DNA of 64,000 nt from the NCBI GenBank assembly GCA_963773065.1, contig CAVYZN010000004.1, forward strand, positions 1 through 64,000, given 5' to 3'. The position numbers and the translations under genes were made by a program. Positions 433-30,447 of the stretch are shown here, in pieces (the first letter of the stretch is position 1; each line of letters begins with the position of its first letter). This stretch comes from an uncultured Gammaproteobacteria bacterium (GTDB lineage Bacteria; Pseudomonadota; Gammaproteobacteria; UBA9214). The notes beneath the pieces are model-generated. The model worked only from the letters and a program-made list of their open reading frames with translations, did not search any database and was not told the origin of the DNA.

Positions 433-2466
433 CTATCGATTGTCCCTGTCATCGAAGCCGAACATGTCGAACAGATCGCCGATAGCCGGCATGTTCACGG
501 GACGTAGGGATTGCCGCTGCGGCGTGACCGGATTCGGCAGATTGTCGCGGCTGCGGTGGGTCAGGGGCTCCAGGGTCCAGTTGCGCTCGATGAATTTCAG
601 AATCGATGCGTGGTCGTGTAGCAATGCACGACGTGTCCGCCATTTGAGTATGGCGACACGGCGATCATTGGAATGCCCGGGCCATCACCGAAGAAGTCGA
701 TCGGCTGGAAGAAGCCCGAGTCCCAATACCCGCCGCCCTCATCGAAGGTGATGAAGAAGGCCGTGTCGTCGAAGAGATCGGGGTGCGCCTTCAGCCCGTC
801 CAGCACGCGCGTCATCATCGACTCGAGAAGGTCCAGCTTCGAGCTCGCTGGATGGCCGTCGTCGAAGCTGTCGGGCTTCAGGTACGAGACCGCGGGAAGT
901 TGGCCGTGATCCAGGTCGTCGAAGAAGTCGTCACATCCTTGATGTGCTCCTCCGCTGGGCCGGGTCGCCCATGATGGACGCTGCATACTGAAACGGATTG
1001 CAGATGTCGCAGTACCAGTCGCCGCCGGTTCCGATCAGGACGTCACCGGATCCTTCGAGCCATCATCGAAGCGCCTCGCCGCATCGTAACCGCCGCCGTA
1101 GTAAGCCCAGCGAGATCTGCTTCTCGTTGAGCGCATCGCCGATGGTGCGAAGCGACGACGGCGGCAGGCGGTGCCCTCCTTGATCGCGGCGGTATTGATT
1201 TCCGTTCGACAGGAACCCCGGGCGCGTGTTGTTGATCATGTAGTACGGCCAGCCTCGCAATTGGATTTCGCCAGATCGGGCCGCCAGGGGAGCGAGTGCA
1301 GATAGTCCTTGACGGCCCGAAGCCAGGCTCCCTCAGGATCGTCGCACTTGGTCCACCGCTGGTCGATGACGAATCCGGCGTCCGTGGCGCCCTTCGGGGT
1401 CGGATCCGCGATCACGGTGGCCGGCGGCTGCGCCGGGAAAGCTGCCGGACGCCTCCCAGATGATCGAATCGCCCGTCATCATCATCATGTGCTGCACCGC
1501 CGTTCCGCCCATGACGGACTGATGGTAGTTGTCGCTCATGGTGTACTCGTCCGCCAGACGCTTGAAGACCGGGGCGTCGCCCTGCTGAACATTGTAGAAG
1601 CCCATCGAATTTGCCGGAATCGTCGCCTCTCGCGATGCCGACGAATGGGTACAGGTCGTTCCGGCAGCCCGACGGGTTGTCAGCAGTGGCGATGGCGATG
1701 TCGCAGTCCGACTGCTGCCACATATGGTACAGCCGATGGACCATGTCCCCGGTGTAGCTGTCGTACGGCACGTTCGGTCCCGTAATCGGGAACATCGTAT
1801 TCGGCAGCGAGTTGTAATTGACGATGCGCGTGTCGGGACCCTGGCACGAAGATGGCGGTTCCGTCGGATCCGTCGTGCAGTTGGCGAGGCCGGGGCTCCA
1901 GTGGTGAGCAGATTCAGATCCCGCGTCCACGAGCCCCTGTGACAGCGTGTGCGAGCGCGCAGAGAAAACGTGTTCGCGTCGAACGGCGGCGCGGCGGCGC
2001 CGGGTCTTTCTACGAACTGCGCGAGCGTCACGGCTGCGGCGGGGCCACCAGCCTCGGGCGTCGGCAGGAATGCCGCGTACGGCGTCTTGGCCGGGTTGAT
2101 CAGCTTGTCCGTGCTGATGAAATAGCCGACCGGGTTGATCGTGTCAGCTTGAACTGCTCAGCGAGCGCCCGGTTCGGTCCCGGCGAGCCGTCGGCGTTGA
2201 CGATCCCTTTCGAAAGCAGATTCGAGACGTTCTGCGCCGTGCTTCGGCACGTACGTGCCGTAGATGTTGTCGAACGTGCGGTTCTCTCCGATGAGGACGA
2301 TGACGTGTTTGATGGGGGTTTCGGTGCGATACTCCCGGTGATGGCGCGATTCGTCCTGCCGCTTGTCGTTCTCATTCGCCGCGAACGCGCGCGGTGACAT
2401 CAGCTGTCCACCGAGCATCGCCGCGACCGCATACGTCGCGATCTGTTTTCTCCGTCGTGCGTTCAT
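433..2466 (-). CDS. Secreted phospholipase C / phosphoesterase (AcpA-like), split by several frameshifts
   Basis: Signal peptide, then TPIKHVIVLIGENRTFDNIY, MGFYNVQQGDAP, YTMSDNYHQSVMGGT, LPAVSYLKP..DGHPASS, ITFDEGGGYWD and DHASILKFIERNW across consecutive frames. Confidence 0.85.
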
Positions 2467-2615
2467 GCGTCGCCTCCCTCAATCTGGAGGCTAACGAACG
2501 CGCATCGCCGCGAGATGCACGGCGGGTAAAGACGACATCACGACTTCTGTCGGCGCGAGTTCTCATAACGCCTTTCTTATGATCTCCGCGCAATTCTCGC
2601 GGTCGTGCTCCGCAG

Positions 2616-3780
2616 CTAACGGCCAGCCAGTACGATCGCTTCACGAAGTCCCTGGTCGAGGCGCCCGAGTGCCGCACCGATGCGCTCGACTTCCCCGCCG
2701 GCGCGCGCGGCGTCGCGCGCACGAACGGCTTCCGCAAGCCGCGGGAACGGCTGCCCGTCGTACAGCGAATAGATATCCCAGCCGTAAATCACGTGCCGGT
2801 ACCGACTGTCGATCAGATGGCTCGCTCTCGTCGAGCAACCGCTGCTCGAGCCGGGCCAGCACATCGTTCAGATCCGGCGTCGCCGGCGACGGCAAGCGGC
2901 CAGACGCCAGCCCTTCGTCGATCTGACGTTCGAGCGCAGACGCCGCCGCCGCGATGCGGCTGACGGCCGATTCGAGAGGCCTCAGATCCAACGCAACCGT
3001 CCGGCGTCCGTCGTCGTCGAACGTCCACGTCGAAACGCTGTCGACGAACTCAGCCAGGCGCTGCGCGTAATGTGAGAATCGGATCGGCAGCACCTCCGAC
3101 TCGCCGAGGCGGAGCGCGACGCTGCCGAGCACGCGCACCAGCTGCGCGCCGCGACGGAATCCCGGGTCGGCGACGTGCTCGGCGAACCATCGGGTGTCGT
3201 AGTTGGAATGATAGGCCCCGTAGGTGTATCCGCCTGTCGCGTTGAATTCGATCGACAGCGTCGGCAACCCGAGGTGATCCTGAAACGCGACGAAATCGGC
3301 GCCGCTTCCGAGCGATTTCAATTCGACCTCGAAGCCGTTCGGACCGCGCCGCCGCCGCTCCGCGGTCTGTCGCGCCCACTCGTCAGCGCGCCACGCGTCG
3401 TAGACACTCGACGGCGCCGTCGGGAACGTCTCTGGTCACATCGACGAGCAGATCCCGGAGCGATGGAACGCCGCCGGCGTCGAGCCGGCCGTTCGTGTAC
3501 AGATCGGTGTTGATGTAGCACATGGTGCCGGCGCGCAGCTGCTCGCCGCCATTGCTCCGCGTATTCGGTCGATCCAATCAGGCCGAACTCTTCCGCGTCC
3601 CAGAATGCGAGTGAGATCGTTCGCTGCGGCTGCCAGCCGCTCCGGCGGAGGGCGCCGAGACTTCGCGCGCGAGCTCGAGGAGCGCCGCCGTGCCCGGTGC
3701 CGGGATCGACGCCGCCGAACGTCCAGGCATCGTGATGGGTGCCGAGCAGGACACCGCGATCCGCCCGACGCGCGCCCGGC
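2616..3780 (-). CDS. M28 peptidase (glutamate carboxypeptidase II-like) C-terminal half; frameshifted and 5'-truncated at a junction
   Basis: GTHHDAWTFGGVDPGTG, FWDAEEFGLIGSTEY, LGSGADFVAF, YHSNYDT and YRHVIYG motifs. Confidence 0.8.
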
Positions 3781-4017
3781 CACCCGGAACCCATCGCGCA
3801 GTACATGGGAAGCTCCGCCATTCGACGGCTATGGCTGGATTTCCGCGCCATCGATGGCTGGCGGGGCAAGCTCGGCTTTCTGACTGAAAAACTTTTTCCG
3901 CCCGCGAACTACATGCTTCAACAGTACCCTGATGCCGGTTCGGCCTGGTTGCCCTGGCTCTATCTGCGCCGCGCGACGGGTTGGGTGCTCGGGCATCTGA
4001 AGGATAGACGCGAGTGA
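3781..4017 (+). CDS. 3' fragment of a probable nucleotidyltransferase-family protein of the lasso cluster
   Basis: C-terminus 'KLGFLTEKLFPPANYMLQQYP..WLPWLYLRR'; its stop overlaps the ABC start (GTGA); family assignment rests on motif memory and context. Confidence 0.5.
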   Translation, partial: HPEPIAQYMGSSAIRRLWLDFRAIDGWRGKLGFLTEKLFPPANYMLQQYPDAGSAWLPWLYLRRATGWVLGHLKDRRE

Positions 4018-5690
4018 ACCCGACAAACCTGCGGGTCCTGCTCGGCTATGCGCTTCCCTATCGCAATGGGCTCATGCTTTGCTCGCTGCTGATGGTGGCC
4101 GAAAGCGGCGCCGCTCTGGCTGTACCCTGGCTGGGCGGCCATTTGGCGCAAGGTATGCTGTCCCGTCAGGTGATCGACACCGGCAGCGTTCTGCTGGCCC
4201 TGCTGGCTCTCTTTGCCGTCCAGGCCCTGCTCAAGTTCGGCAATAGCTACCTGCTGAACCGCAGCGCCCAGCACATCCTGGCCGACCTGCGCATCCGCCT
4301 CTACGATCATCTGCAGGCGTTGCCCCTGGGCTTCTACCACCAACGCCGCCTGGGCGATGTGCTCGCCTTGCTCACCTATGACGTCGAACGATTGAGCGGC
4401 TTCCTCACCGGCACCCTGCTCAGCGTGATCCCCCTGCTCATCACGGTGGCCGGGGCACTGCTGTTCATGTTCCGCATCGACCCGCTGCTGTCGTTGATCG
4501 CCGCCGTGCTGGTGCCCCTGTTCTACCTGCTGATGAAAGTGATCGGCCGCCGCCTGCGCCCCCTCGCCAGCCAGTTGCAGGAGGCCTATGCCGGAGCGGT
4601 ATCCATCGCCGAGGAAAACCTGGGTATGCTGCCGGCCATCAAGAGCTTTACCCGCGAGTCGCAGGAATCGGCGCGCTACCGCCTCCAGGTCCAGGAAATC
4701 CTCAGCCTGAGCAAACGGCAGGGGGCGATTTACGCCGCCCTGGGACCCAGCGTGCAGTTCCTGGCCGCCGCCGGCATCGTGCTGGTGCTGTGGCTGGCGG
4801 GCGATCGTATCAGCGGCGGCAGCATGGGCCCCGGCGAGTTGGTGACGTTCCTGCTCTACACCGGACTGCTGACCCGGCCGGTCAGCGCCCTGGCCGATGT
4901 CTACGGCCAGACCCAGGGTGCGCGGGGCGCGCTGGAGCGGCTGATGCGAGTGCTCTCCGAACGTCCCGAGCCCTTGTCACAGATCGGTCATGAGCTGCGC
5001 GATGTGCGCGGCGAGATCGAATATCGTGACATTTGTTTCGCCTACCCGGGACGACCGCCGGCCCTGGATGGCGTCAATCTGCACATTCGCGCCGGCGAGA
5101 CCGTGGCGATCACCGGCCCCAACGGCGCCGGCAAGAGCACCCTGGCCCATCTGCTGATGCGCATCCATGAACCCGGCAGCGGCCGGATTTTTATCGACGG
5201 CACGGACATCTCCACGGTCAGCCTGCACAGCCTGCGCCGGCAGATCGGCGTGGTGCCCCAGCATGTGCTGCTGTTCAACGGCACGTTGCGCGACAACATC
5301 GCCTACGGCCGCCTGGATGCCACCCAGGAAGCCATCGAGGCAGCGGCCAGGGCGGCCCGTGCCCATGACTTCATCGTGAATCAGCCGCAGGGTTACGACA
5401 CCCTCATCGGTGACCGTGGGGTGCGCCTGTCCGGCGGGCAGCAGCAGCGCCTGGCCCTGGCCCGCGCCCTGCTCAAGGACCCGCCCATCCTCATCCTCGA
5501 CGAGGCCACCGCCATGTTCGATCCGGAGGGGGAGCGGGAATTCCTGCAGGAATGCCGGGAGGTATTGGAGCAGCGGACGGTGCTGCTGATCACCCATCGG
5601 CCGGCGAGCCTGGCTCTGGCGGATAGGGTAGTGCAACTCGTGGATGGAAAGATAATCAGCTGCACCGCAAGCCATGGCGCTATGAGCTGA
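4014..5690 (+). CDS. ABC exporter (TMD+NBD), probable lasso peptide transporter
   Basis: Several TM segments, Walker A GPNGAGKST, LSGGQQQR, Walker B ILILDEAT. Confidence 0.92.
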   Translation: MNPTNLRVLLGYALPYRNGLMLCSLLMVAESGAALAVPWLGGHLAQGMLSRQVIDTGSVLLALLALFAVQALLKFGNSYLLNRSAQHILADLRIRLYDHLQALPLGFYHQRRLGDVLALLTYDVERLSGFLTGTLLSVIPLLITVAGALLFMFRIDPLLSLIAAVLVPLFYLLMKVIGRRLRPLASQLQEAYAGAVSIAEENLGMLPAIKSFTRESQESARYRLQVQEILSLSKRQGAIYAALGPSVQFLAAAGIVLVLWLAGDRISGGSMGPGELVTFLLYTGLLTRPVSALADVYGQTQGARGALERLMRVLSERPEPLSQIGHELRDVRGEIEYRDICFAYPGRPPALDGVNLHIRAGETVAITGPNGAGKSTLAHLLMRIHEPGSGRIFIDGTDISTVSLHSLRRQIGVVPQHVLLFNGTLRDNIAYGRLDATQEAIEAAARAARAHDFIVNQPQGYDTLIGDRGVRLSGGQQQRLALARALLKDPPILILDEATAMFDPEGEREFLQECREVLEQRTVLLITHRPASLALADRVVQLVDGKIISCTASHGAMS

Positions 5691-5697
5691 GTCGTAC

Positions 5698-6151
5698 ATG
5701 AACGGCAAACTGTCAAAGTTCCTGGCCCTAACGGCAGCCGAAAAATGGCTGTTTCTCTCGGCGGCCATGCTGTTGCCGCTGTTCTGGCTCGGGTTGCGCG
5801 TTTTCGGGTTGGCGCGCTTGCAGGCCTGGCTCGAGCGTTCTCCGCTTGCCGCAAGGAAGTCGCCCTCCGTCGCTGAGTTGTCTGACATCGGCGCCCTGGT
5901 CAACAGCGCCGCCCATTACGCCCCCGGCCCGGTGACCTGCCTCACCCGTTCCCTGCTGCTGCGCTGGCTGTTGCGCCGCCGCGGCATTGCCAGCGACTTG
6001 CGCATCGGCGTGCAGCTCGTGCAGGGCAGGCTCGACGCCCACGCCTGGGTGGAATATGAAGGCATGCCCATCAACGACGCGCCGGATGTGGCCCAGCGCT
6101 TTGCGGCGTTCAACGAGCCCCTTTCATCCCGAGGCCTTTTCCTCGCCATGA
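5698..6151 (+). CDS. Lasso peptide leader peptidase B2 (transglutaminase-like)
   Basis: TCLTRSL (catalytic Cys), LRIGV and AHAWVE (His); in this sequence it reads in frame into the cyclase. Confidence 0.9.
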
Positions 6152-8021
6152 GCGGCATTGCCGGCATCATCCGCTTTGACGGCGCGCCGGTCGAGCCGGG
6201 GCTGGTGGAAAAAATGACCGCCGCCATGCCGTATCGCGGCCCCGATGGCATCAACCATTGGGTCAAGGGCTCGGTGGCATTAGGGCAGTGCATGCTACGC
6301 ACCACGCCGGAGTCACTCGAAGAAACCCAGCCGCTCACCAACGAGGACGAAAGCCTGGTGCTCGTCATGGACGGGCGGGTGGATAACTGGGAAGAACTGC
6401 GGCGCGAATTACTTGGGCGTGGCGCCGTGCTGCGCACCCGCTCGGATGCCGAACTGGTTCTGAGAGCCTATGAAACCTGGGGTCGGGAATGTTTGCCCCA
6501 TATCGATGGCGACTTTGCGCTGGTCATCTGGGATGCGCGGCGACGAGAAGCTTTTTGTGCCCGTGACCGGGTCGGCAACAAACCCTTCAATTACTCTTGG
6601 GACGGAAAGACCTTCGTCTTTGCCTCGGAACTGCACGCGATCCTGGCGTTGCCCGGTGTCAAGGAGGTGTTCAACGAGGGGTTGCTGGCAGAGTATCTGG
6701 CCAACGAGTGGTATAGCCGCGATGAAACATTCTGGAACGGGGTGATGCGACTGGTGGCTGCGCATCGGATGGTAGTCGATGCCGGTGGCGTCCGGATGGA
6801 AAGGTATTGGCAACCGGATCTATGGGCCACGCTGCCCTGCAAAAATGATGAAGAATATATCGAGCATTACCGTGAATTGCTTGCCGACGTCGTGCGGCGC
6901 ATGTCGCGCTCACACCAAGCTGTGGCCTATGAAGTCAGCGGAGGGCTTGACTCCTCCGCGCTCTTTGCCATGGCAGAACATCTGCGCCGCCAGCAAAAAC
7001 TTCCCGCACCGGCGATTGAAGCTTATGCGCTGGATTTCCATGATGACCCGAATGCTAACGAACTGGATTATAGCCGTGCCATGGGTCGGCATCTGGGGGT
7101 TCCCATTCGCGAGATCTCGCCCACGGTAATGTCTGTCTCGTGGTACCGGAATTGGGCTGAACGCTACCGTGAGTTTCCGGGTTACCCCAACGGTATTATG
7201 GCCATCGGCCTCAGGGAGGCTGCCCGTCAAGAAGGTTGTCGGGCCATCGTGTCAGGGGTAGGCGGGGACGAATGGCTTGGGATGCCATGGACCGGGGCTT
7301 ACTATGCCGAAGAGTTGGCCTCCCGGCAGTGGAGAATGTGTATGCCTGCTTGAAAGCCGATAGCCGGGAACTCGGTGTCCGGGAAACCCTCTGGTGGCTA
7401 TGCCGTTATGGTGTGGCGCCGCTATTGCCTGAGCGGATTAAAGCATGCGCTGCGCAAAATTCGCGGGGTGGAAAAGAGAGACTCCTGGCTTTCCGCCAAT
7501 TTGCAGGAGACGATCGAAAAACGGCGCAGTCAGTTGCGTAAGCCTGTGCCCGCGCGGCTTCAGCGACGCAGGGCAAGGAATACAAATTCAGATCCTGGAG
7601 GGGGCGTTTGATGCCTTGGCCCGCGAACTTGAAGAGCGACTCAGTTCCAGTCTGCAGCTTGAACTGCGCAAACCTTTTTTTAATGAAAAAATCATCCAGT
7701 TTGCTTTTTCGACGCCCGAGCGGCTGCGTTCCCGGGGGCATACGACCAAGTGGCTGCACCGGCAGGCCCTGAAAGGACTGCTGCCGGCGCTGGTTCTGAA
7801 TCGTGCAAGCAAGGCGGAATTTTATGGTCACTTTCCGCAGACACCTGGACAGCATGAGAGCTGAAGTGGTGAGCGATATCGTGCCACGGCGGGCAGCGTG
7901 GATTCAGCCTGAGCGTGCAATTATAATATGTCAAAATTATCATGAGGTTGCGTTTACCGGTTGGGCGGAGTGGCGGTTGTGGTCGCTGGTTGGATGCGAT
8001 GCTTTGTTAAATGACCGATAA
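6148..8021 (+). CDS. Lasso cyclase C (asparagine synthetase-like), frameshifted in the 3' third
   Basis: Starts MSGIAG (Ser in place of the glutaminase Cys); DGRVDN, SDAELVL, ARDRVG, SGGLDSS, SGVGGDE; continues in ORFs 7375, 7445 and 7803 (ELRKPFF, KWLHRQALKGLLP). Confidence 0.88.
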
Positions 8022-8085
8022 GATGCTATAAGCTATGGCCGAACGTGTTATTTCATGAACGTTATTACAGAGGGGAGAATTACCG

Positions 8086-8261
8086 ATGCAAACGAAAACT
8101 TCACTCAATGAACATGCCAAGGGAGAGAAAGTCGGACTTCTCAAGAAGCATTACCAGAAGCCCGTCTTGAAGACTTATGGCCCTGTGAAACATTTGACCC
8201 AAGGTCTACCGGCTCAGCGAATGGGGACGGTGGTCAAAACATGATGGCCGCCATGGGATGA
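8086..8261 (+). CDS. Lasso precursor peptide A (missing from the ORF track; probable 1-nt deletion near 8206)
   Basis: RBS AGGGGAG, then MQTKTSLNEHAKGEKVGLLKKH-YQKPVL-KTYGPVKHL-TQ|G (YxxPxL, Thr at -2). As read it stops at 8244; restoring one base gives core G-x-TGSANG-D9-GGQNMMAAMG ending at 8261. Confidence 0.85.
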
Positions 8262-8278
8262 TTACCTGACGGCTGTCT

Positions 8279-9397
8279 GTGATTCATGAACATTTGGGGT
8301 ATGTGTCAGATGGCGTAAGACTCAAACAATTCAAGGCCGCCCTGGCAAAGGTCATCAAGTCCGGTGATCGTGTTGCAGATCTGGGCTGTGGTTCAGGGGT
8401 GCTTGGTCTGCTCTGTTTGCAAGCTGGCGCCTCTCATGTGGTTGAGATTGACGACAGCGCCATGATTGAAATCGCACGGGAATCCCTGGTGCGGGCTGGT
8501 CAGGGTGACAACGCCACCTTCATCCGTGGCAAATCCAGCCAGATTGAATTACCCGAACGGGTGGACGTGGTGATCTGTGACCATGTCGGCTACTTCGGAT
8601 TCGATTACGGGATCATCGAATTTCTTCAAGACGCAAGGAGGCGTTTTCTCAAACCGGGCGGGACGCTCATTCCCTCGAAAATACGGCTGAACATCGCCGC
8701 CGTCGGTTCCCAACAATGCAGTGAGCTCGCCCTTGGCTGGCGAGACGAAAAAATTCCCCCTGAGTTCAACTGGCTGAGCAGTTATTCGATCAATGCCAAG
8801 CATGCCGTCAACCTCGCGCGGGATGATGTGCTATGTCCGCCTGCGGTGCTGGGCGAGATCGATCTCTATGCAGACAACCCGGAGTTTTTTACCTGGGGCG
8901 CGGAATTGCGTATCGAACGGGATACGGTCATGCACGGCCTTGCCGGCTGGTTCGAGTGCGAACTGGCGGAAAATGTCTGGATGACGAACTCACCGCTGGC
9001 GGAAACACCGATCCAGCGGCCTCAGGCCTTCTTTCCTATTGGAGATGCCGTGCAGGTAAAGGGTGGAGATGTTGTCAAAGCCACCCTCATGGCGCGTCCG
9101 GCTGAACATGTAATTGCCTGGACCGTGGAGTTTCCAGCTACGGGACAGCGTTTCAGCCATTCAACCTGGCAGGGGATGTTGCTGTCACCGGAGGATTTGC
9201 TGCGCTCCAACCCGAATCATGTTCCGCAATTGAGCCGTGCAGGACAGGCCCGCATGACGGTGCTGGGTTATTGCAACGGAACAAGAACCGCTCGGGACAT
9301 CGAGCAGGCCGTCCTGAGTGACCACCCGGATTTGTTCCCCTCGCCAACGGAAATCTCGCACTTCGTGTTTCATGTGCTTGGCAGGGATACGGCGTAG
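8279..9397 (+). CDS. SAM-dependent methyltransferase with PRMT (protein arginine methyltransferase)-like fold
   Basis: VADLGCGSGVLG, VDVVICDHVGYFGF, ARRRFLKPGGTLIP, MHGLAGWFECEL, WMTNSP..QAFFPI. Confidence 0.85.
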   Translation: MIHEHLGYVSDGVRLKQFKAALAKVIKSGDRVADLGCGSGVLGLLCLQAGASHVVEIDDSAMIEIARESLVRAGQGDNATFIRGKSSQIELPERVDVVICDHVGYFGFDYGIIEFLQDARRRFLKPGGTLIPSKIRLNIAAVGSQQCSELALGWRDEKIPPEFNWLSSYSINAKHAVNLARDDVLCPPAVLGEIDLYADNPEFFTWGAELRIERDTVMHGLAGWFECELAENVWMTNSPLAETPIQRPQAFFPIGDAVQVKGGDVVKATLMARPAEHVIAWTVEFPATGQRFSHSTWQGMLLSPEDLLRSNPNHVPQLSRAGQARMTVLGYCNGTRTARDIEQAVLSDHPDLFPSPTEISHFVFHVLGRDTA

Positions 9398-9553
9398 TGT
9401 CCGGAGGGTGTGAACCTCGCGGCTGCACGTGCCTTTGAACGACCTGCTGTTCCACGAAGGGACCTTACCGGTCGGTACGTTATCGACGCAGTTTTTCCGC
9501 AAGCTCGTGATGAGTCGCCGCCTGGGTGGTGACCGCCGGCGGCAGCCCGGACC

Positions 9554-10340
9554 ATGACAATGGACCTGTATCTGTCAAAACTGATTCCGCTGTTCATTTA
9601 CCCGCTTGGGTTCGCCCTGGTGGTATCGATGCTTGCCATGGGTATTCTGGGGCTGTCGGCCCGGTTGGCGCGGGTTTTCCTGTTCGTGGCGGTCACTGTG
9701 TTGTGGGTGGCGTCGACGCCGATCTTCGCGGATTACCTGGGCTTGACGCTGGAGCGGCGCTATCCGCCGGTGGCGGTCGAGGACGACGCCAACAGCCGAT
9801 GCGATCGTGGTATTGGGCGGTGCCGTGGAAGGGCCGGCACCGCCACGGATTACACTGGACCTGACAGATGCGGCGGATCGGGTGCTGCATGCCGCGCGCC
9901 TCTATCGCGCCGGCAAGGCGCCGGTTGTTCTGGTTTCCGGCGGGGTTATCCCCTGGCTGGGTTCGGACATTCCGGAGGCCGAGTCTATGCAGTTACTGCT
10001 GGAGGAGTGGGGTGTTCCTAGTGCATCGATTTTAAGGGAATCCGCCAGCCGCAACACCTACGAGAATGCCGTGTTGAGCCGGCAGGTGTTGGCGGAACGC
10101 GGGTTACATCGGGTCTTGCTGGTGACCTCGGCGCTGCACATGCCGCGGGCACTGGCGACGTTCATATCAGCGGGAATCGACGCCGTGCCGGCCACAACTG
10201 ATTTCACCGTGACCTATCGGGAGCACCGCACAGCGATTGATTTTCTGCCCGATGCCAAGGCGTTGTGGCACGCGACGGAAGCGATCAAAGAATATGTCGG
10301 TTATGCGTATTATCGGTGGCAGGGGTGGATAGCGGGGTAG
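9554..10340 (+). CDS. YdcF/ElyC (DUF218) family protein, one frameshift near 9790
   Basis: YLSKLIPLFIYPLG, IVVLGG, VLVSGG, SRNTYENA, LLVTSALHMPRA, KEYVG. Confidence 0.88.
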
Positions 10341-10398
10341 TCGGATGGTGCCTGCTGTCGCGGCGCTGCCTGTGGTGAGGATGCGTTATCCAGACTTT

Positions 10399-10496
10399 TT
10401 TAGACGCGGTGGGCTGGCCAGAGGTGATCTTTGTCGATGGTGAGTTGCTGGGTTTTACCGAGGATATCCAGCAGGATGATCGAGCGTGCTTCGCCA
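10399..10496 (-). pseudogene. Duplicated 3' end of rfaH
   Basis: Near-identical to 13308-13405, including the stop codon and downstream 'gactttttta'. Confidence 0.85.
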
Positions 10497-10545
10497 CCAA
10501 AAAGCTGCGGTTGCACAGACGTGGATTGACGCGCCGTGCCGCGGC

Positions 10546-12999
10546 TTACTTCATCCCCTCCTCTGCCTTTGCCTTCGGCGAGTACAAAAACAGCGGACCC
10601 TGGAACCCCTCGGCCACCTGCACCCGGCTCAGGCTCGTGCTCACCCGAACACCGATCACGTTGTGCCCCGCCTTCACCTGGTCCGTCACGTCAAAGTCCA
10701 TCACCTGCGGGCGGATGTACGCCTCGTTGTACGGCCGGTGTCCCGAGTACTGCCCGTTCGTCCACACCCACGCCTCGGTCACCACGATCGGCGCGTACAC
10801 GTGGATCGGCTTGCCGATCGCCGACTTGGGTACCTCCAGATCAAACGCGTACCAGATGAACCCGATGTACGGCACCCCCCGGCTGTCCAGCATCCCGTCG
10901 CCCTGCAGATAGAACGGCACCGCCGTGTCGATCTTCCGCCACTTTGAACGGTCGAACCCCGGGTCGTACCACCGCCCGATCCGTCCCATGTCCGCGTCGT
11001 CCAGCTTGAACGACACCTCCTCCGGCGCCTGCACGATCAGGTCCCCCGTCTTGCCCGTCGTCATGTCCAGCAGACGCTGGTAGTGCTCCTTCCGCTGCGT
11101 CAGGTTCCAGTAGGGCGACCCCGCGAAGTACACCAGCCGCGGGTCCTTGCTCTCCGGGTAATAGAAGTACGCGCTGATCTTGTTCAGCGCCTCGCGCTCC
11201 TTGAACATCAGGCCCGCGTGGTGGATCGCCTCCGCCCACTGGCCCCGGAACTCCGCCCGGTTCATCGCCAGGTAGCCCTTCAGGTGGTTGAGGATGTGAC
11301 GGTCCACCGTCACGTGCGTCCGGTACGGCTCGGCGGTCGCCAGCTTCTCCGCCTCCTGCTCGGCCTTCTCCATCGCCGCGATCATCTGGTCCGTGTACAC
11401 GTACGGCAGGATCCGGTCCTCGTGACCCAGCAGCGGCGTGCTCTCCAACGCCTCCTCCAGCGCGTCCCAGTACGCCTGCGCCGGCCCGGCCGCCGGCCCG
11501 TACCACTTCTCGAAGTAGTCCGACAGGATCGCTTTCGCGTCCTCGTCCGCGTGCCAGTACAGCTTCGCCCGTAGGTAGAACGACGTGATCCCGTGTGCCA
11601 TCCACGAGAACGTCTGCTCGTCCTCGAATCCCGCCACGCGCCACTTTTTCATCAGCGGCGTGTTCCGCGCAATCTTCCGCGTCAGCGGCATCGGCGTTAA
11701 CGCATTGACCAGCATCGGGAAGTTGTAGTTGTAAACAAACACCCGCGGGCACAGCTCGGCCCAACGCTTGAGCATCTGACCCTGCATCACCTGCTGCCAG
11801 CTCTTGGGGTCGTCGTACGAGTGCAGCAGGTCCGCCCAGATCGCCGCGAACATCACCCCCATATGCGGGTTGATCGGAACCCCCTCCGGCGGGAACGTCC
11901 GGTTCGCATAGCCGTTGGTCGTGATGATGAAACCCGGGTACTTCTTCTGCACCTCCTCCGTCACCCGATCCATGAACCGGAACCACTCCTCGCTGATCGA
12001 ACGCTCCGTGATCACCCCCTCGCGACCCACCAGGTCCGTGAACCCCCGGTTGAACTCCATCGTCTGCTTCGACAGGTCCATCGGGATCCCGTCGTCCGGG
12101 GCAAACCCCAGCGAGTTCAGCTCCGGGTTCTTCTTCCGCTCCGCGTCGATCCGCGCGATCACCTTCTCCGCCACCAGCTTCGGAACCTCCGGGTTCGACA
12201 GGCTCACCATGTGCGGGTTCCGCGTCCCGTCCAGGTTCTGGGCAAAGTACTCCGGGTGCGTCGCCATCAGCTCCTTGTCCGGCATATACTGGCGCAGGGA
12301 CCTGTCCCACGGGGTCGCCAGCACGTCGATCTGCGAGAGCGTCAGCTTGTTGTGCAGCCGGAAAAGAGCGTCGTCCTCACGCAGCTCCGGCGCCAGGTTC
12401 CCGTTCCACGACCGCACGATGAAGTCCGGCTTGTCGCGGTACGTGAAGTCCTTGACCTCCAGCGTGGGCGTGTGGGGCACGACCTCGCCAAAGTCGCTGG
12501 GCATGAACCAGCGCACGCCCTGGCGGTTGAGGAACTCGCAGACCGCAAAGGCGGTGCCCTGATACGGCCCCATGTCGTTGCCGGCGAGCACGAGCGTGTC
12601 GCCCTTGGCCCAGATCATGTACGCCTCTTCCTTCCGCCCCGGCGTCAGGCCGGTGGGGATGTCCAGCTTCAGCGGGTCGGTGCGCTTGCTGGCGCCCACT
12701 AGCACCACGGGCCCAGCGGGCGCCTGGTCGTCGCCGACGATCGCCAACTGCGCGCCGGTGATTTTCTGTACGTAAAGCTGCAACTGCTCGGCGGCGAAGT
12801 GCACCTTCCCGTCCGGCTCGCCCTTGACACGAACCGCCGGCTTGTAGGGCTTGGCATCCAGCGCCGCCTTGGAAATGACGATGGTCGCGACGGGTTTGCC
12901 GTCCTTCACCAGCGTCACCGCCTGCGCCGGCGACGACGTCAGCACGCACAACCCCACCCAGACCAGCATAGCCAGTGACGCGAACGTGAATCGATGCAT
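10546..12999 (-). CDS. Secreted DUF4838-type protein (GH-like N-terminal domain, C-terminal galactose-binding-like domain)
   Basis: Signal peptide; 'AAEQLQLYVQKITGA', 'GTAFAVCEFL..GVRWFMP..FGEVVP', 'HPEYFA', 'YLRAKLYW..DYFEKWYGPAA'; intact ORF with strong G/C third positions. Confidence 0.7.
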   Translation of the reverse strand: MHRFTFASLAMLVWVGLCVLTSSPAQAVTLVKDGKPVATIVISKAALDAKPYKPAVRVKGEPDGKVHFAAEQLQLYVQKITGAQLAIVGDDQAPAGPVVLVGASKRTDPLKLDIPTGLTPGRKEEAYMIWAKGDTLVLAGNDMGPYQGTAFAVCEFLNRQGVRWFMPSDFGEVVPHTPTLEVKDFTYRDKPDFIVRSWNGNLAPELREDDALFRLHNKLTLSQIDVLATPWDRSLRQYMPDKELMATHPEYFAQNLDGTRNPHMVSLSNPEVPKLVAEKVIARIDAERKKNPELNSLGFAPDDGIPMDLSKQTMEFNRGFTDLVGREGVITERSISEEWFRFMDRVTEEVQKKYPGFIITTNGYANRTFPPEGVPINPHMGVMFAAIWADLLHSYDDPKSWQQVMQGQMLKRWAELCPRVFVYNYNFPMLVNALTPMPLTRKIARNTPLMKKWRVAGFEDEQTFSWMAHGITSFYLRAKLYWHADEDAKAILSDYFEKWYGPAAGPAQAYWDALEEALESTPLLGHEDRILPYVYTDQMIAAMEKAEQEAEKLATAEPYRTHVTVDRHILNHLKGYLAMNRAEFRGQWAEAIHHAGLMFKEREALNKISAYFYYPESKDPRLVYFAGSPYWNLTQRKEHYQRLLDMTTGKTGDLIVQAPEEVSFKLDDADMGRIGRWYDPGFDRSKWRKIDTAVPFYLQGDGMLDSRGVPYIGFIWYAFDLEVPKSAIGKPIHVYAPIVVTEAWVWTNGQYSGHRPYNEAYIRPQVMDFDVTDQVKAGHNVIGVRVSTSLSRVQVAEGFQGPLFLYSPKAKAEEGMK

Positions 13000-18032: not shown

Positions 18033-19232
18033 TGTGCATGGCGAATTGCTACTCAGGCAGCTATGGGCAGTTGGTAAAGACCGCGGCAATGAGATTTCCA
18101 GCGAAACCGGCTGAGGTCGGCGCGGCGGATGAGGGGTTCACCGGAGATTTCTGACGGTGTATCGCCGTCAAGCGCAGTATGTGCACGATGCGTGTTGTAA
18201 TACTGCCGGAATCCTTCAAGTTTTCGTTCCAGATCACTTGCATTCCAAAAGATCACATGGTCAAGGAATTCGCGGCGAATGGTCCCGATCAGTCGCTCGA
18301 TGAAGGGATGCGATAAAGGAGCGTAAGAAACGGATTTGATTTCCTGGATATCCAGGATGCGCAGATTCGCCTGCCAGCGGTGATAACGAAACAGCGGATC
18401 ATTGTCGGAGCTGAGGTAGTGGGGGATTCCTTGGTTCGTGACAATCAGATTGAAAAGACGACACAGGGCGATCCCATTGACATCACCGGCATGGACACCC
18501 AAGCCGATGATGCGGCGCGTGAACTGGTCCATGACCACGAGTACCCAGTGGCTCTTCAAAAGAATGGATTCACAGCGAAACAGGTCAATACTCCAGAGGC
18601 TGTCCTTCGCGTGTCCGAGGAAGGTCAGCCACGACGGACCGCCACCATTGGGATCTGGCCGGTAATGCGCGGCGAGGACGCGTCGCACGACAGCTTTATC
18701 GATGTTGATGCCGAATGCCTTGTTGATCTGCTGCGCGATCCGTGGGCAGCCAAACCGTGGGTTGCGTTGCTTCAGATCAACGATGGCCTGGATAAGTTCT
18801 GGTGACGGACCCTTGGGGCCAGACTTGCCTTTGCGGCTGGAAGAGTACAGCAGTCGATATTTTCGCTGCTTGAGCAGGTTGTGGAATTTTAACAACGTCG
18901 ATGGCCGGATAATCACGGCAGCTCGCTGGATATGGCGTGGGTTGAGAAACAGTGACCAGATGCCGAGCAGGAAACGATCCAGTGCCGAGAGATTGGGAGC
19001 ACGCCGTCGGGCGCGATTCATGATTAGGAGTTGCTGCTTCATGAGCAGGCTTTCGGCGACGACGGCCTTCGCGCCGCTGGGTCCCAGGAGCTTGGCGATG
19101 GTGGTCAGTAAATGGGCGAGGAGCGACAGCAGATCCTTCATGGCAGAGCAGGGTAGGGGAGGTAGTCTTTAGGAGCAAGTCTGTCAATGTCATCAGTTTC
19201 AAGCGAAAATTGCGGATTCGCCGCCATAGACA
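18033..19232 (-). mobile_element. IS481-like insertion sequence with integrase-core (rve) transposase at 18053-19141
   Basis: TGT...ACA ends with imperfect IR (TGTGCATGGCG / CGCCATAGACA); DDE motifs WSIDLF, SSDNDPLF, ERLIGTIRREFLD, YYNTHRAH. Confidence 0.8.
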
Positions 19233-19385
19233 CCCGGGAAAAGCGCACGATGCGTAGTGGTGGGTACTCCAGGCGCGGCCGCCAGGCTTTCTCGCCGATG
19301 GCCAGCCAGACTTCAAACGGTGCTTGGGTAGTGAGGTCATGAAAACGCAGGGCGGACAGCAGACAGACCACGCCTTTGGGTACGT
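19233..19385 (-). pseudogene. Type IV TA AbiEi antitoxin internal fragment
   Basis: VCLLSALRFHDLTTQAPFEVWLAI..PRLEYPPLRIVRFS. Confidence 0.8.
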
Positions 19386-19386
19386 T

Positions 19387-19701
19387 TCAAAAGCCACTGA
19401 ACAGGAAGTCGATCGCATCTATGATCTGATCCCTTTGTACCACAAGCGACAGCACCCTTTTACCCAGGGCACGTTTCGGAATTCCAGCGATCTGCTCTGT
19501 GACCATGACCACCAGAACACCTTCGATCTCGAACTGTGGGTTGAGGTACTTGGCTGGTTGACCGCGTTCGGACAGCAACGCGAGAGGAACGACGACGCGT
19601 GTGCTGACGGGTTCCAACAGGTCCGATTGGACTTCCAATAGATAAGGAACAGCGGGCGCGCTGTCAGGGTTTGGATTCAGACAAACATCGAACTGGGCCA
19701 T
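19387..19701 (-). CDS. ccdB: CcdB family toxin (copy 2)
   Basis: Near-identical to 14725-15039. Confidence 0.92.
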   Translation of the reverse strand: MAQFDVCLNPNPDSAPAVPYLLEVQSDLLEPVSTRVVVPLALLSERGQPAKYLNPQFEIEGVLVVMVTEQIAGIPKRALGKRVLSLVVQRDQIIDAIDFLFSGF

Positions 19702-19946
19702 CAGAACTGGCGCAGCCCATCGCTGAAGACACCATGCTTCTCGACAAAGACATTGTAGTCGTCCAGAGCGGGGCGGTTATCATCCAGCCACTGCGCACGC
19801 CGCTTCTGTCTGATCAGGTGAGCGAGTTCATCTTCAAGGGTGGCGGACAGATTGATTTTCAGAACTTTGGCCTGCTGCAACAGGTCACTGTTGATGCTGA
19901 CATTCGCCGCTTTTTTCGGGGCATTGATGTTGTAGAATTCGCTCAT
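19701..19946 (-). CDS. ccdA: CcdA antitoxin (copy 2)
   Basis: Protein identical to 15039-15284. Confidence 0.92.
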   Translation of the reverse strand: MSEFYNINAPKKAANVSINSDLLQQAKVLKINLSATLEDELAHLIRQKRRAQWLDDNRPALDDYNVFVEKHGVFSDGLRQF

Positions 19947-20051
19947 CGGAATCAGGAACCAATATTAGTTTGGCGTATTCCGGCGAAGTTGAACACCGAT
20001 TCCGGACGAACGTGAACACCTGATTTCACAACGCATCACGGAGTGTGCTTT

Positions 20052-20808
20052 TTAGCGCAGGTGTTCATCTTCGGTCAACTGGCCGAGGATTTTGCGCATG
20101 GATTCGCCCTTGAGCTGGAGACGGTGGGCGTTATGCATCAGCCGGTCCAGGATGGCATCGGCGAGCGTGTTATCGCCGATGCTGGCATACCATTGGTCGG
20201 TCGGCAGTTGACTGATCACCAGGGTGGACGTGTGTCCGTGGCGGTCGTCCATGATTTCCATCAGGTCGTTGCGGTGAGCCGGTTTCAACGGCTCCAGCCC
20301 CCAGTCGTCGACGATCAGTAATTGGACCTTGGCGAGCTGCGTGAGCTGTTTGTGGTAACTGCCGTCGGCCTTGGCCTGGGTCAGTTCCAGTAGCAACCGT
20401 GACAGGCGGTAGTAGCGCACGCTGTAGCCCTGCCGGCAGGCGTTATGGCCCAGGGCGCAGGCCAGGTAGGTTTTGCCGCTGCCACAGGGGCCGGTCATCA
20501 GCAGATTCTGGGCACGGTTGATCCAGTCGCCCTGGGCGAGGCGTGCGATCTGCACCTTCGTTAAGTTGCGCGGGTGCTGATAGTCGATGTCCTGCACGCA
20601 GGCGGCGAGTTTGAAGCGGGCCTGACCTATCAGGCGCTCCTGCTTGCGCTGCTCACGGCTTAACACTTCCTGCTCGACCAGCAGCGCGAGTCGTTCGGTA
20701 AAGGCCAGCCCTTCATAGGTGCCGACCTGTTCCAGCTGGCTTTGCAGGGCATTGGCCATGCCGCCGAGTTTGAGTTGGCGCAGGCGCGCCAGGGTTTGGT
20801 GTGGTCAT
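20052..20808 (-). CDS. istB: IS21 helper ATPase IstB (5' frameshift)
   Basis: GPCGSGKTYLACALG, LLIVDDWG, TLADAILDRLMHNAH, GESMRK. Confidence 0.92.
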
Positions 20809-20825
20809 CGTATTTTCTCCTTGGG

Positions 20826-22369
20826 TTAGTGGAAGGTGTGGGGACCGCGGATGTTCTCGTGGTCCTGGGGCAGTTCGGTGTCGAGATCGAGCTGCTCGGG
20901 CAGTTGATCCCGGTTGCTTTGGAGGATTGACTTGACCTGTTTCAGGCGCATCAGGCCGGCCTGGTTGGCGATCCGGCAGGCGGCTTCGAGTCGCTCACGC
21001 GGATACGCGCGACTGAGGTTGAGCAGGCCGAGACAGACCCGGTAGGCCTGCTCGGGATGGGCTTTGGATGTCAGTTGCATATCCACCCAGGCGAGCACGG
21101 CGGGGCCGATGTCGCGGGCCCAGTGCTTTAACCGCCCCGGTGTCCACTGCTGGTGTTTCTGGTGGCGTTTGGGCATGTGGGCTGATTCGGTGGTCATGCC
21201 CGGACGGTGTTTGCGCGGATGCGATGTGATCTGTTGCTGGCGGAAGTAGAGCATGATCAGCGTATCGCTGGCATGCAGTTCCAGGGTCTCGCCCACGTAC
21301 TGATGCGGGACCGAGTAGTGATGCTGCTGGTACTGCACGTGGTAGTCGATATTGACCTTGACCGGCTTGATATCGACATAGCGGTAGGGGTGACGGGGCA
21401 AGGGCTTGAGGGCGGGCTTATCGAGCTGCTCGAACGCCTGGCGGCGGTTGCCCGGAAACTGCTTGAACGGCTTTTGGTTCAGCTCCTCGAGCAAGGCACG
21501 GATACACTGGTTCAGTTCGGTGAGCGAGAAGAAGCTGTGATGGCGTAGCCGCGCCAGGATCCAGCGCTCGACGATCTGCACGCCCACCTCGGCCTTGGCT
21601 TTATCTTTCGGCTTGTAGGGCCGTGCCGGGACCACCGCGACCTGATAGTGCGCGGCCCACTGCTGATAGCTGGCGTTGAGGTCGGGATCATAACGACACG
21701 CCCGGCTGACACCGCTTTTCAGATTGTCCGGGACGACGATCTCGGGACAGCCCCCAAAGTACTCGAACGCCCGCACATGACTGCCCAGCCAGTCCGGCAA
21801 GGACTGTGTGAGGGTCGCTTCGGCATAGGTGTAGTTGGAGGCCCCCAGCACCGCCACGAACACCTGCGCCGGATGGATCTCGCCGGTGTCGGCACAGACG
21901 ATGGGCGCCGTGGGTCCGCAGTAATCGACAAAGCATTTCTCACCGGCCTTGTGGAGCTGACGCATGGAGCGCTTTTGCAGGCCCTGCCAGTGTGCGTAAC
22001 GGTCGCAGAATTGCGAGTAGCTGTAACAGCGGTTGGGACACTGCTGGGTGTACTCCTCCCACAGCAGTTGCTTGGTCACCCCTTTGCGCTTGAGTTCCTG
22101 ATGGATGACCGACCAATCGGGCACCTGGAAACGGGTGGAGACGCGGGTGTCGGCGTCGGGATAGAACCGCCGGGCCAGCTGGTTATCATCCAGCTCCGGC
22201 GGCAACGGCCAGCCGAGCCCCAAGTGCATCGGCTGTGCGCCAGCAGCTTCTGGATGGCGCCGACACTGACCTTGGTGCTGGCACTGATCTGGCGGATTGA
22301 CAGACCGGCGGAGCGCCGTAAACGAAGTATTTCGCGGATTTTTCGCATTGTGGTCCTCTTGACTGGCAT
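20826..22369 (-). CDS. istA: IS21 transposase IstA (frameshift near 22235)
   Basis: [55 protein letters not shown]. Confidence 0.92.

Positions 22370-29138: not shown

Positions 29139-30447
<1,309 letters not shown>

Follow-up and report, generated by a model that had tools for sequence, protein, structure and literature searches.

A PRMT-fold methyltransferase in lasso peptide clusters of Pseudomonadota, a putative tailoring enzyme with a non-arginine acceptor

What does an enzyme with the fold of a protein arginine methyltransferase (PRMT) do beside the genes for a lasso peptide, and what would it methylate if the peptide holds no arginine? The question is raised by a 64,000-nucleotide stretch of DNA from an uncultured gammaproteobacterium (UBA9214 lineage; assembly GCA_963773065.1, contig CAVYZN010000004.1), which we call the window and which forms the first 64 kb of contig 4 in a genome of 3.84 Mb and 33 contigs, rated 90.9% complete. 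Within it, directly after a lasso precursor gene, lies a gene (8279 to 9397, + strand) for a methyltransferase that uses S-adenosylmethionine (SAM), hereafter the MT. Taking gene content and sequence comparisons together, we think it rather likely that the region is a shortened, indel-ridden copy of a lasso cluster from a large undescribed Pseudomonadota family and that the MT would be a SAM-dependent tailoring enzyme for the lasso precursor or peptide, acting on a non-arginine acceptor.

Fold and substrate loops of the methyltransferase

A phmmer search of the PDB with the MT returned 86 sequences at E ≤ 0.01, and all of the best 60 were PRMTs, headed by PRMT8 (5dst, E 3.4e-23, query residues 27-290). 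The AF2 model, built on 113 family members, reached a predicted local distance difference test score (pLDDT) of 97.2 and a predicted template modelling score (pTM) of 0.90; its top Foldseek matches were PRMT6, PRMT1 and Hmt1 at E ~1e-27, with a target-normalised TM-score of 0.84 and a root-mean-square deviation (rmsd) of 2.6 to PRMT1 (1or8). VIA-align, run against 48,161 representatives and without Foldseek, gave PRMTs in all of its best 15 rows (Z 24.9-32.3, model residues 1 to 297 or 300), with Z 32.3 to PRMT6 and 31.4 to PRMT3, and the next match after the PRMTs was PrmA at Z 14.8. Pfam PRMT_C scored 27.2 bits on the MT against a cut-off of 27. In the model, a Rossmann domain and a beta-barrel with a dimerisation arm (1 to ~297), which together make up the type I PRMT fold, are followed by a four-helix C-terminal domain (~300-372). 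A sequence-only reading of this DNA had proposed a PRMT architecture that is neither StspM-type nor homologous to the isoaspartyl methyltransferases (PIMT), and both parts of the proposal held: phmmer, AF2, Foldseek and VIA-align all point to the PRMT fold, the PRMT beta-barrel is present, and neither an O-methyltransferase nor an isoaspartyl-methyltransferase family is among the nine Pfam and 16 NCBIfam families matched by the MT, which reaches no NCBIfam model.

Type I PRMTs carry a SAM-binding motif I (GxGxG) and an N-terminal SAM-binding arginine. The MT has both, at positions that align to PRMT8 and Hmt1 with HMMER, and the positions of the SAM site are kept in most of the 113 family members over which conservation was counted (R14 in 106, D34 in 112, G38 in all 113 and G40 in 106), as are H5 (110) and D11 (102). 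The substrate loops are changed. When HMMER aligns the MT to PRMT8, CDHVGYFGFDY falls opposite the PRMT segment SEWMGY...YE, so that in place of the two glutamates of the double-E loop the MT has Asp101 and, aligned to the second glutamate, Tyr110, with Asp109 one place before it. The THW loop, which shapes the arginine pocket in PRMTs, aligns to Q-R-gap-P (within IQRPQ), its histidine replaced by an arginine (R247). Across the family, position 101 is Asp in 101 of 113 members and Glu in another 10, position 109 is Asp or Glu in 87, and R247 is kept in 99, with Trp there in 11. Because these three positions are largely kept, the loop is altered yet acidic, with a basic residue in the pocket region. 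The motifs quoted in the sequence-only reading (CDHVGYFGFDY, LKPGG.LIP and IQRPQ) are all present, and two of its loops do align to the double-E and THW loops; its description of them as rewired goes too far, since the two acidic places are mostly kept as Asp or Asp/Glu, even though the double-E glutamates themselves, their spacing and the THW loop are not kept. Together, these data indicate that the MT is, as modelled, a true PRMT-fold enzyme with the SAM-binding residues of type I PRMTs plus a family-specific helical domain.

That domain, four helices over residues ~300-372 of the model, was covered by no PRMT in the structure comparison. Folded alone, it gave helices only, at a pLDDT of 83.2, and had no Foldseek match at E ≤ 0.001; Pfam returned no match for the domain of 19 members. 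Below the noise level that VIA-align states for itself, rows paired it with PqqD (3g2b, Z 5.7, rmsd 1.8 over 49 residues) and with the lasso B1 proteins 6jx3 (Z 4.5) and TbiB1 (5v1u, Z 4.3). Compared by hhalign with the clusters' own PqqD proteins, it reached a probability of 0.14, and the Atlas hits (best 0.86, unnamed; WHD_PKMT 0.77) are leads. A RiPP (peptide made on the ribosome and modified after translation) recognition element (RRE) is a winged helix with a three-stranded sheet that binds the leader; the domain model shows helices only.

Lasso gene neighbourhood and precursors

The sequence-only reading had described a co-directional run of genes leading up to the MT, and every part of it was found on the + strand, in the order given here with the evidence for each assignment (ORF, open reading frame; ABC, ATP-binding cassette):

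3739..4017, +, 3' remnant of an NTP_transf_5-type nucleotidyltransferase, 5' part missing (92-codon ORF)
4014..5690, +, ABC exporter with permease and ATPase, intact, 558 aa (Pfam ABC_membrane 165 bits, ABC_tran 124 bits)
5698..~6132, +, lasso B2 leader peptidase (Transglut_core3, PF13471, 93.4 bits; NF033537 90.4 bits against a cut-off of 33)
6148..8021, +, lasso cyclase, Asn-synthetase-like (Pfam GATase_7 and Asn_synthase)
8086..8205, +, precursor leader (ATG frame; YxxPxL motif, Thr at -2, last residue Gly; translation)
8205..8261, +, core reading of 18 residues in the neighbouring frame, stop at 8259-8261 (three-frame translation)
8279..9397, +, PRMT-fold SAM methyltransferase, intact, 372 aa, GTG start (Pfam, PDB phmmer, AF2, Foldseek, VIA-align)

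After frame correction, the precursor stop and the MT start are 17 nt apart, the spacing that had been estimated before. This arrangement recurs throughout a large family. A word-indexed protein search with the MT, in which 8000 candidates were tested, found 1281 proteins at E ≤ 0.001; the best 120, which are those listed, are 64-100% identical to it and nearly all 372-387 aa long. A full scan gave 722 cluster representatives at E ≤ 1e-30. All 14 reference-genome loci have matches to the window's B2 and cyclase pieces in their flanks, and in 10 of them a same-strand cyclase ends at most ~1.2 kb upstream. At least one lasso gene is present on 17 of 22 metagenome contigs; the five without one (loci L020, L023, L028, L034 and L038) have little or no DNA upstream of the MT. 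Within a sample of 401 genomes of the phylum (match threshold E ≤ 1e-30), 29 genomes had a match and only four matches, the window included, were full-length; the other three all have the cyclase upstream and a kinase and PqqD downstream.

Pfam searches of 73 neighbour ORFs gave the order (APS kinase), NTP_transf_5, B2, cyclase, precursor, MT, a 287-aa HprK-related protein and PqqD, with the ABC exporter on either side in relatives' clusters, and confirmed Transglut_core3, Asn_synthase, PqqD, NTP_transf_5 and ABC. The MT holds a fixed place, after the precursor and before the kinase and PqqD, in relatives down to 40% identity. The sequence-only reading had named homologues mostly unlinked to lasso genes as the outcome that would speak against it; the full-length ones nearly always stand beside such genes.

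Several related loci show further features. In L078 (1079-3542, - strand), a distant 370-aa PRMT-like protein with an N-terminal extension and without the helical C-terminal domain is encoded between an HprK-like kinase and a PqqD that scores 92.2 against the NCBIfam lasso-B1 cut-off of 80. Given this arrangement, a second PRMT-like lineage also touches lasso genes, and enzymes of this kind may have entered such clusters on more than one occasion. Related lasso clusters also contain inserted toxin-antitoxin-like and nuclease genes (PIN/Doc-like, BrnT, HigB, HicB-like, DUF433, Uma2), which lie either between cyclase and MT or between PqqD and the MT or kinase (L007:2400-3440, L009:4598-5563 and 9100-11030, L016:10224-10916, L018:9551-10147). 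A second lasso cyclase lies close to the MT cluster in L011 (11148-13289, -), L016 (12525-14009, -), L018 (13725-15488, -) and L014 (2727-4995), and L014 also holds a second, different short precursor near its MT-bearing cluster.

The precursors of most relatives are unusually built. The gene between the cyclase and the MT has 125-170 codons and encodes a lasso leader, a core of 15-21 residues (~55 residues for leader and core together) and a domain that starts with Ser-Asp-Arg-x-x-Lys; examples are L006:7545-7970, L008:7551-7964, L009:7584-7970 and L022:5574-5954, among others. All eight long precursors tested passed the cut-off of Pfam Peptidase_S74 ('chaperone of endosialidase'), that serine being matched by position 1 of the profile, and the dyad of this Ser and the Lys five places on is invariant in 79 aligned members. 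The S74 profile matches the self-cleaving domains of the phage S16 long tail fibre (6f45, E 1.7e-4) and of MYRF (7dc3, E 3.7e-4). From these sequence features we infer that the fused domain would cut itself off in most relatives, setting free the mature C-terminus of the precursor. A protein search found 999 S74-fused precursors at E ≤ 0.001, called 'tail fiber domain-containing protein' where NCBI gives a name, and their length probably keeps them out of searches for small-peptide precursors.

Other members of the family have short precursors, which stop where the long ones have the S74 serine (L017 compared with L022, and L021 compared with protein P0177); in the window lineage, too, the stop codon stands at that place. 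No S74 domain follows the window's core before the stop at 8259-8261, and tblastn with the L006 precursor found, in the window lineage, the L021 leader only and no S74 remnant. A search for S74 precursors without an MT gave only two precursor-like matches in the 401 genomes, the same two in 301 genomes of one family, and no match on plasmids. In genome G198, the S74-fused lasso-type precursor L043 (C1:1691269-1691658) has no cyclase within 1.5 kb, nor an MT, and ~200 kb away L063 (G198:C1:1493431-1494540) is a cluster of cyclase, short precursor, MT, kinase, PqqD and ABC exporter.

The window's own core reading is rich in Gly and Ser, has Asp as its eighth residue and is Met-rich towards its end; it resembles the cores of L017, L021 and P0177. 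It depends on a frame change: read on in the ATG frame, the peptide stops at 8244 without an Asp or Glu able to close a ring, and the lasso precursor signature (Thr at -2, a small residue at core position 1, Asp or Glu at 7-9) fits only if the frame changes at ~8205. The sequence-only reading had called the restored core free of arginine, and in the three-frame translation it has neither Arg nor Lys. The leader is 85% identical over 40 residues to that of the intact L021 precursor, and an intact short precursor with the same leader is found in L021 and in protein P0391; the short-precursor protein search gave two matches, one of them the window's frameshifted ORF. Relatives of the window leader match the NF033528 lasso peptide model weakly, at 20.6-25.8 bits against a cut-off of 33.

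Possible acceptors and the state of the window's copy

The window copy is atypical, being without the S74 domain, kinase and PqqD. It shares its arrangement with the other members of its lineage: in L020, L021 and L028 (MT 87-88% identical) and in L034 (79%), the MT is followed by DUF218, without kinase or PqqD, as in the window, and L022 (MT 77%) has the full set in the window's order with an S74-fused precursor. The ratio of non-synonymous to synonymous substitution (dN/dS) of the MT against L020, L021, L028 and L034 is 0.166-0.197, and that of L020 against L021 is 0.24. The MT is under purifying selection in the window lineage and, on these values, selection has continued to maintain it since kinase, PqqD and S74 were lost. 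With a gene that directly follows the precursor gene across the family and is kept in this way, the MT would transfer methyl groups from SAM to the lasso, either as precursor or in its finished form.

To which group would the methyl go? We read 28 MT-linked cores from the translations of 26 loci, 17 of them S74-fused and 11 short; left out were L013 (near-identical to L012), loci without sequence or a recognisable precursor upstream of the MT, the precursor of the second cluster in L014 and a single false regex match in L022. Of these cores, 19 are without Arg, 13 without Arg and Lys, and three without Asn and Gln. Since 19 of 28 lack it, arginine is not a conserved acceptor. A Met after the ring acid occurs in 27 of the 28, the exception being L019, whose MT is truncated; for comparison, Met is found in the tail of 65 of 116 parsable S74-fused precursors of unknown MT status. 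The sequences are related and the comparison set may contain MT-linked members, so this pattern is a lead and not a result, and the MT-less set, with only two precursor-like matches, is too small for the association to be tested.

The acceptor would thus not be arginine, and the candidates are the tail Met thioether, an Asn or Gln amide, a ring Ser or Thr and the C-terminal carboxylate, with the ring acid possible as well. A bolder version, in which the PRMT-fold enzyme is re-purposed for a non-arginine acceptor and S74 releases the precursor C-terminus, would have a tail Met sulfonium as its best lead and an Asn/Gln amide as the alternative; we regard this combination as tentative and, as a whole, rather unlikely. 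A complex prediction of the MT with the intact L021 precursor scored 0.01 against a mark of 0.32 and is evidence neither way.

A number of observations weigh against a tailoring role with a non-arginine acceptor. Both acidic loop residues are largely kept, as would fit a positively charged substrate, Arg or Lys for example, and nine of the 28 cores do have Arg. Only Gly, the ring acid, Ser/Thr and, in 27 of 28, Met are common to the cognate cores; as no other single residue type is common to all of them, the acceptor is not readable from sequence. The S74-fused precursor L043 has no MT within 1.5 kb. The 401-genome sample also held 25 shorter PRMT-like proteins (open frames of 337-710 aa, 22-34% identity by tblastn) without the C-terminal domain, L078 among them, and since 23 of these show no lasso gene within 1.5 kb, the PRMT fold as such is not tied to lasso clusters. 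Finally, the window's cluster lacks an RRE and has its cyclase spread over four frames, so that the MT may serve no working pathway here.

A rival explanation is an ordinary Arg/Lys N-methyltransferase that serves those precursors that have such residues and is idle, or on its way out, elsewhere, the window included. The PRMT fold and acidic loop agree with this, as does the presence of Arg or Lys in 15 of the 28 cores, often in the tail; moreover, the nearest intact precursor, that of L021 and P0391, carries an Arg as the fifth core residue, in place of the Ala read in the window. However, an intact, full-length MT accompanies the 13 cores that have neither residue (e.g. L017, L022, L029, L061, L062), the positions of Arg and Lys in the cores are not conserved, and the THW loop is replaced by a sequence whose R247 is itself conserved (99 of 113). 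We consider this explanation improbable.

It would be about equally surprising to us if the MT acted away from the peptide, in self-protection or as a protein-directed enzyme that methylates Arg or Lys on a cellular protein, e.g. the lasso peptide's target. The mostly kept acidic pair (D101 in 101, D/E109 in 87 of 113) and the cores without Arg (19 of 28) or without Arg and Lys (13 of 28) would both be accounted for, and so would purifying selection on the MT in a lineage without kinase and PqqD. The window, moreover, has an unbroken ABC exporter and MT beside an interrupted cyclase and precursor, as one would expect if immunity genes had been retained. Yet the fixed gene place after the precursor, down to 40% identity, is typical of tailoring genes, and L021 and P0391, of the same lineage, keep an intact precursor. 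Related contigs also lack the window's extra cyclase bases, which means that the survival of immunity genes only may be an artefact of a single assembly. We know of no precedent for methyltransferase immunity in lasso clusters, though no search was aimed at one. A tailoring enzyme with a non-arginine acceptor remains the reading that we prefer for the family.

Whether it also applies to the window depends on the frame breaks there. By tblastn with the intact cyclases of L008, L009 and L017, all parts of the cyclase are present at 6148-8021, but they are spread over four frame segments, with at least four frame changes near 7330, 7448, 7569 and 7825; because the query stops at 7350, the cyclase scored 315 bits with NF033535, under the cut-off of 525. 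The last codons of B2 are frame-shifted, and B2 and cyclase read as a single 551-aa ORF; the B2 gene of L022 overlaps the cyclase at its end through an ATGA stop/start, and the window holds the same ending in another frame. With the precursor included, at least six breaks fall within ~2 kb, between ~6120 and 8210. Beside them, there is no break in the ABC gene (1.7 kb), in the cyclase over its first 1.2 kb or in the MT (1.1 kb), and genes elsewhere in the window stay open over long distances, up to 2373 aa.

Logan contigs of four metagenome runs come from relatives ~94% identical to the window and are not its source reads, so they cannot decide between error and decay; in the sequencing-run screen the best share was 0.18, and the window strain is therefore in no run. 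One base is absent at both 7448 and 7569 in the contigs of runs X1 and X3. At 7825, one base is absent in X1 only, and X3 spans the place and matches the window. Single bases at 8018 and 8078 are absent in the X1 and X2 contigs.

Two unrelated upstream genes on the - strand, a phosphoesterase (600-2031) and an M28 peptidase (2644-3869), are each split into at least two ORFs, the same type of damage as in the cyclase and near the contig start. The broken peptidase gene extends into the nucleotidyltransferase remnant ORF at 3739-4017, whose sole matches are the C-terminal ends of the NTP_transf_5 genes of L011, L014 and L019 (36-40% identity; tblastn, Pfam). The ABC exporter is 71% identical to the ABC gene at the equivalent place in L022. 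B2 is the only one over the cut-off in its own genome and supplies the leader peptidase of a lasso cluster; no RRE/B1 (PqqD-like, PF05402) component was found in the window's cluster or anywhere in its 90.9%-complete genome. PF14907 and an HprK-like relative were likewise not found in that genome with the queries used. A promoter and terminator scan was uninformative (0 promoter-like sites with 2.3 expected, 8 terminator-like with 6.0 expected).

These features could mean that the window's cluster is a dead remnant from which nothing is made, the frame breaks and the losses of S74, kinase, PqqD and most of the nucleotidyltransferase all being real. Six or more breaks in so short a stretch, the failure to find PqqD, an HprK-like kinase or NTP_transf_5 in the genome with the queries used, the broken genes at 600-3869 and the insertion sequence (IS) elements at 18-30 kb would all be in keeping with decay. 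Several findings argue otherwise: the breaks crowd into ~2 kb and leave the ABC gene, most of B2 and cyclase, and the MT intact; long intact ORFs of up to 2373 aa fill the rest of the window; contigs of ~94%-identical strains are without single bases exactly at 7448, 7569 and 7825; the dN/dS of the MT is ~0.17-0.20; and the genome is just 90.9% complete. Because unrelated neighbour genes are broken too, a local quality problem near the contig start is suggested. The breaks are thus either assembly consensus errors or recent decay, and we hold real decay to be a substantial possibility, if not one that we favour; we say the same of the remnant explanation as a whole. With cyclase and precursor broken and no RRE found in the genome search, the window's own cluster may not work, and lasso formation without an RRE would leave as options a gene in the missing 9% of the genome, a role for the MT helical domain, or a dead pathway. 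For the family, a tailoring enzyme is still what we would expect the MT to be.

Elsewhere in the window, mobile elements lie at 18056-22229 and 29181-30400 (an rve_3 integrase ORF, an IS21-type pair of transposase and IstB, and an IS3-type transposase), and the first 30 kb look like a variable region. At 53815-60936 (+), an intact ORF of 2373 aa with GH94 supersandwich and catalytic domains and a glucoamylase-like domain resembles cyclic beta-1,2-glucan synthases; since it is intact, the assembly is clean there.

Comparison with known systems

As a class of natural products, lasso peptides have been mined heavily, and every tailoring enzyme added to those known extends the range of products that they can give. 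The window itself is a poor specimen, and the interest of the find is mainly at the level of the family. A PRMT-fold MT and S74-fused precursors were not found described for lasso peptides in the searchable literature. Full-text searches, with subscription papers and supplementary cluster tables outside their scope, returned no paper joining lasso peptide, methyltransferase and PRMT; for lasso peptide with 'arginine methyltransferase' the one match was a paper on saskemycin. No paper in the full-text literature, subscription papers again being outside its scope, linked Peptidase_S74, intramolecular chaperone, endosialidase or tail fibre to lasso peptides, and RiPP with precursor peptide and intramolecular chaperone returned unrelated papers only.

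Kinase-bearing lasso clusters, of the paeninodin and pseudomycoidin type, hold an HprK-like kinase, PqqD and a nucleotidyltransferase. The relatives of the window carry the same set (HprK-related kinase, PqqD/B1, NTP_transf_5); neither the PRMT-fold enzyme nor the S74 follower belongs to the clusters described so far, and the window copy has lost kinase and PqqD. PsmN is mentioned in the accessible part of PMC9266682.

Methyl-dependent modifications of lasso peptides are named, in the accessible text of one review from 2022 (PMC9266682) and another from June 2026 (PMC13352647), only as C-terminal methylation (LasF/StspM) and PIMT-type aspartimidylation. The C-terminal carboxyl O-methyltransferases LasF (lassomycin) and StspM resemble the MT in being SAM-dependent tailoring enzymes encoded in a lasso cluster. 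According to sections of PMC9266682, StspM acts on the linear precursor, and its model, based on mitomycin 7-O-methyltransferase, has His and Glu as the catalytic pair; the window MT, in contrast, has a PRMT beta-barrel and no Pfam O-methyltransferase family match. The PIMT-type enzymes TceM and LihM are also SAM-dependent and part of lasso clusters; their family is another one, that of the isoaspartyl O-methyltransferases. In aspartimide formation their substrate is the threaded lasso (PMC13352647, accessible text), and their clusters have a conserved Asp6 as acceptor (PMC9266682, accessible text), whereas no fixed acceptor is seen in the cores of the window MT family.

Peptidase_S74 chaperones (endosialidase tailspikes, the S16 fibre, MYRF) share with the long precursors the invariant Ser and Lys and the profile matches to 6f45 and 7dc3. 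Here the domain is fused to a lasso leader and core and not to a trimeric fibre, its self-cleavage is predicted, and it is absent from the window precursor. In the accessible text of PMC13352647, none of the strings 'tail fiber', 'autoproteoly', 'self-cleav' and 'C-terminal extension' occurs. An S74 follower would be a natural way to make, and then unmask, a lasso C-terminus.

The closest likeness is to the type I PRMTs (PRMT1, PRMT3, PRMT6, PRMT8 and yeast Hmt1), with which the MT shares the two-domain fold (Z 31-32, rmsd 2.4-3.1 over ~292 residues), the GxGxG motif, the N-terminal His/Asp/Arg positions and the DAR and LKPGG motifs. If its acceptor is new, the chemistry of this fold would be extended in bacteria. 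The differences are in sequence (20-24% identity only), in the loop, where the first Glu is Asp and the place aligned to the second is Tyr or Ala with Asp or Glu one place earlier, and at the two ends, the MT starting just before the conserved His, without the N-terminal helix, and adding a helical domain of 75 residues. Unlike these PRMTs, the MT is a bacterial enzyme encoded in a RiPP cluster, and most of its presumed substrates are without arginine.

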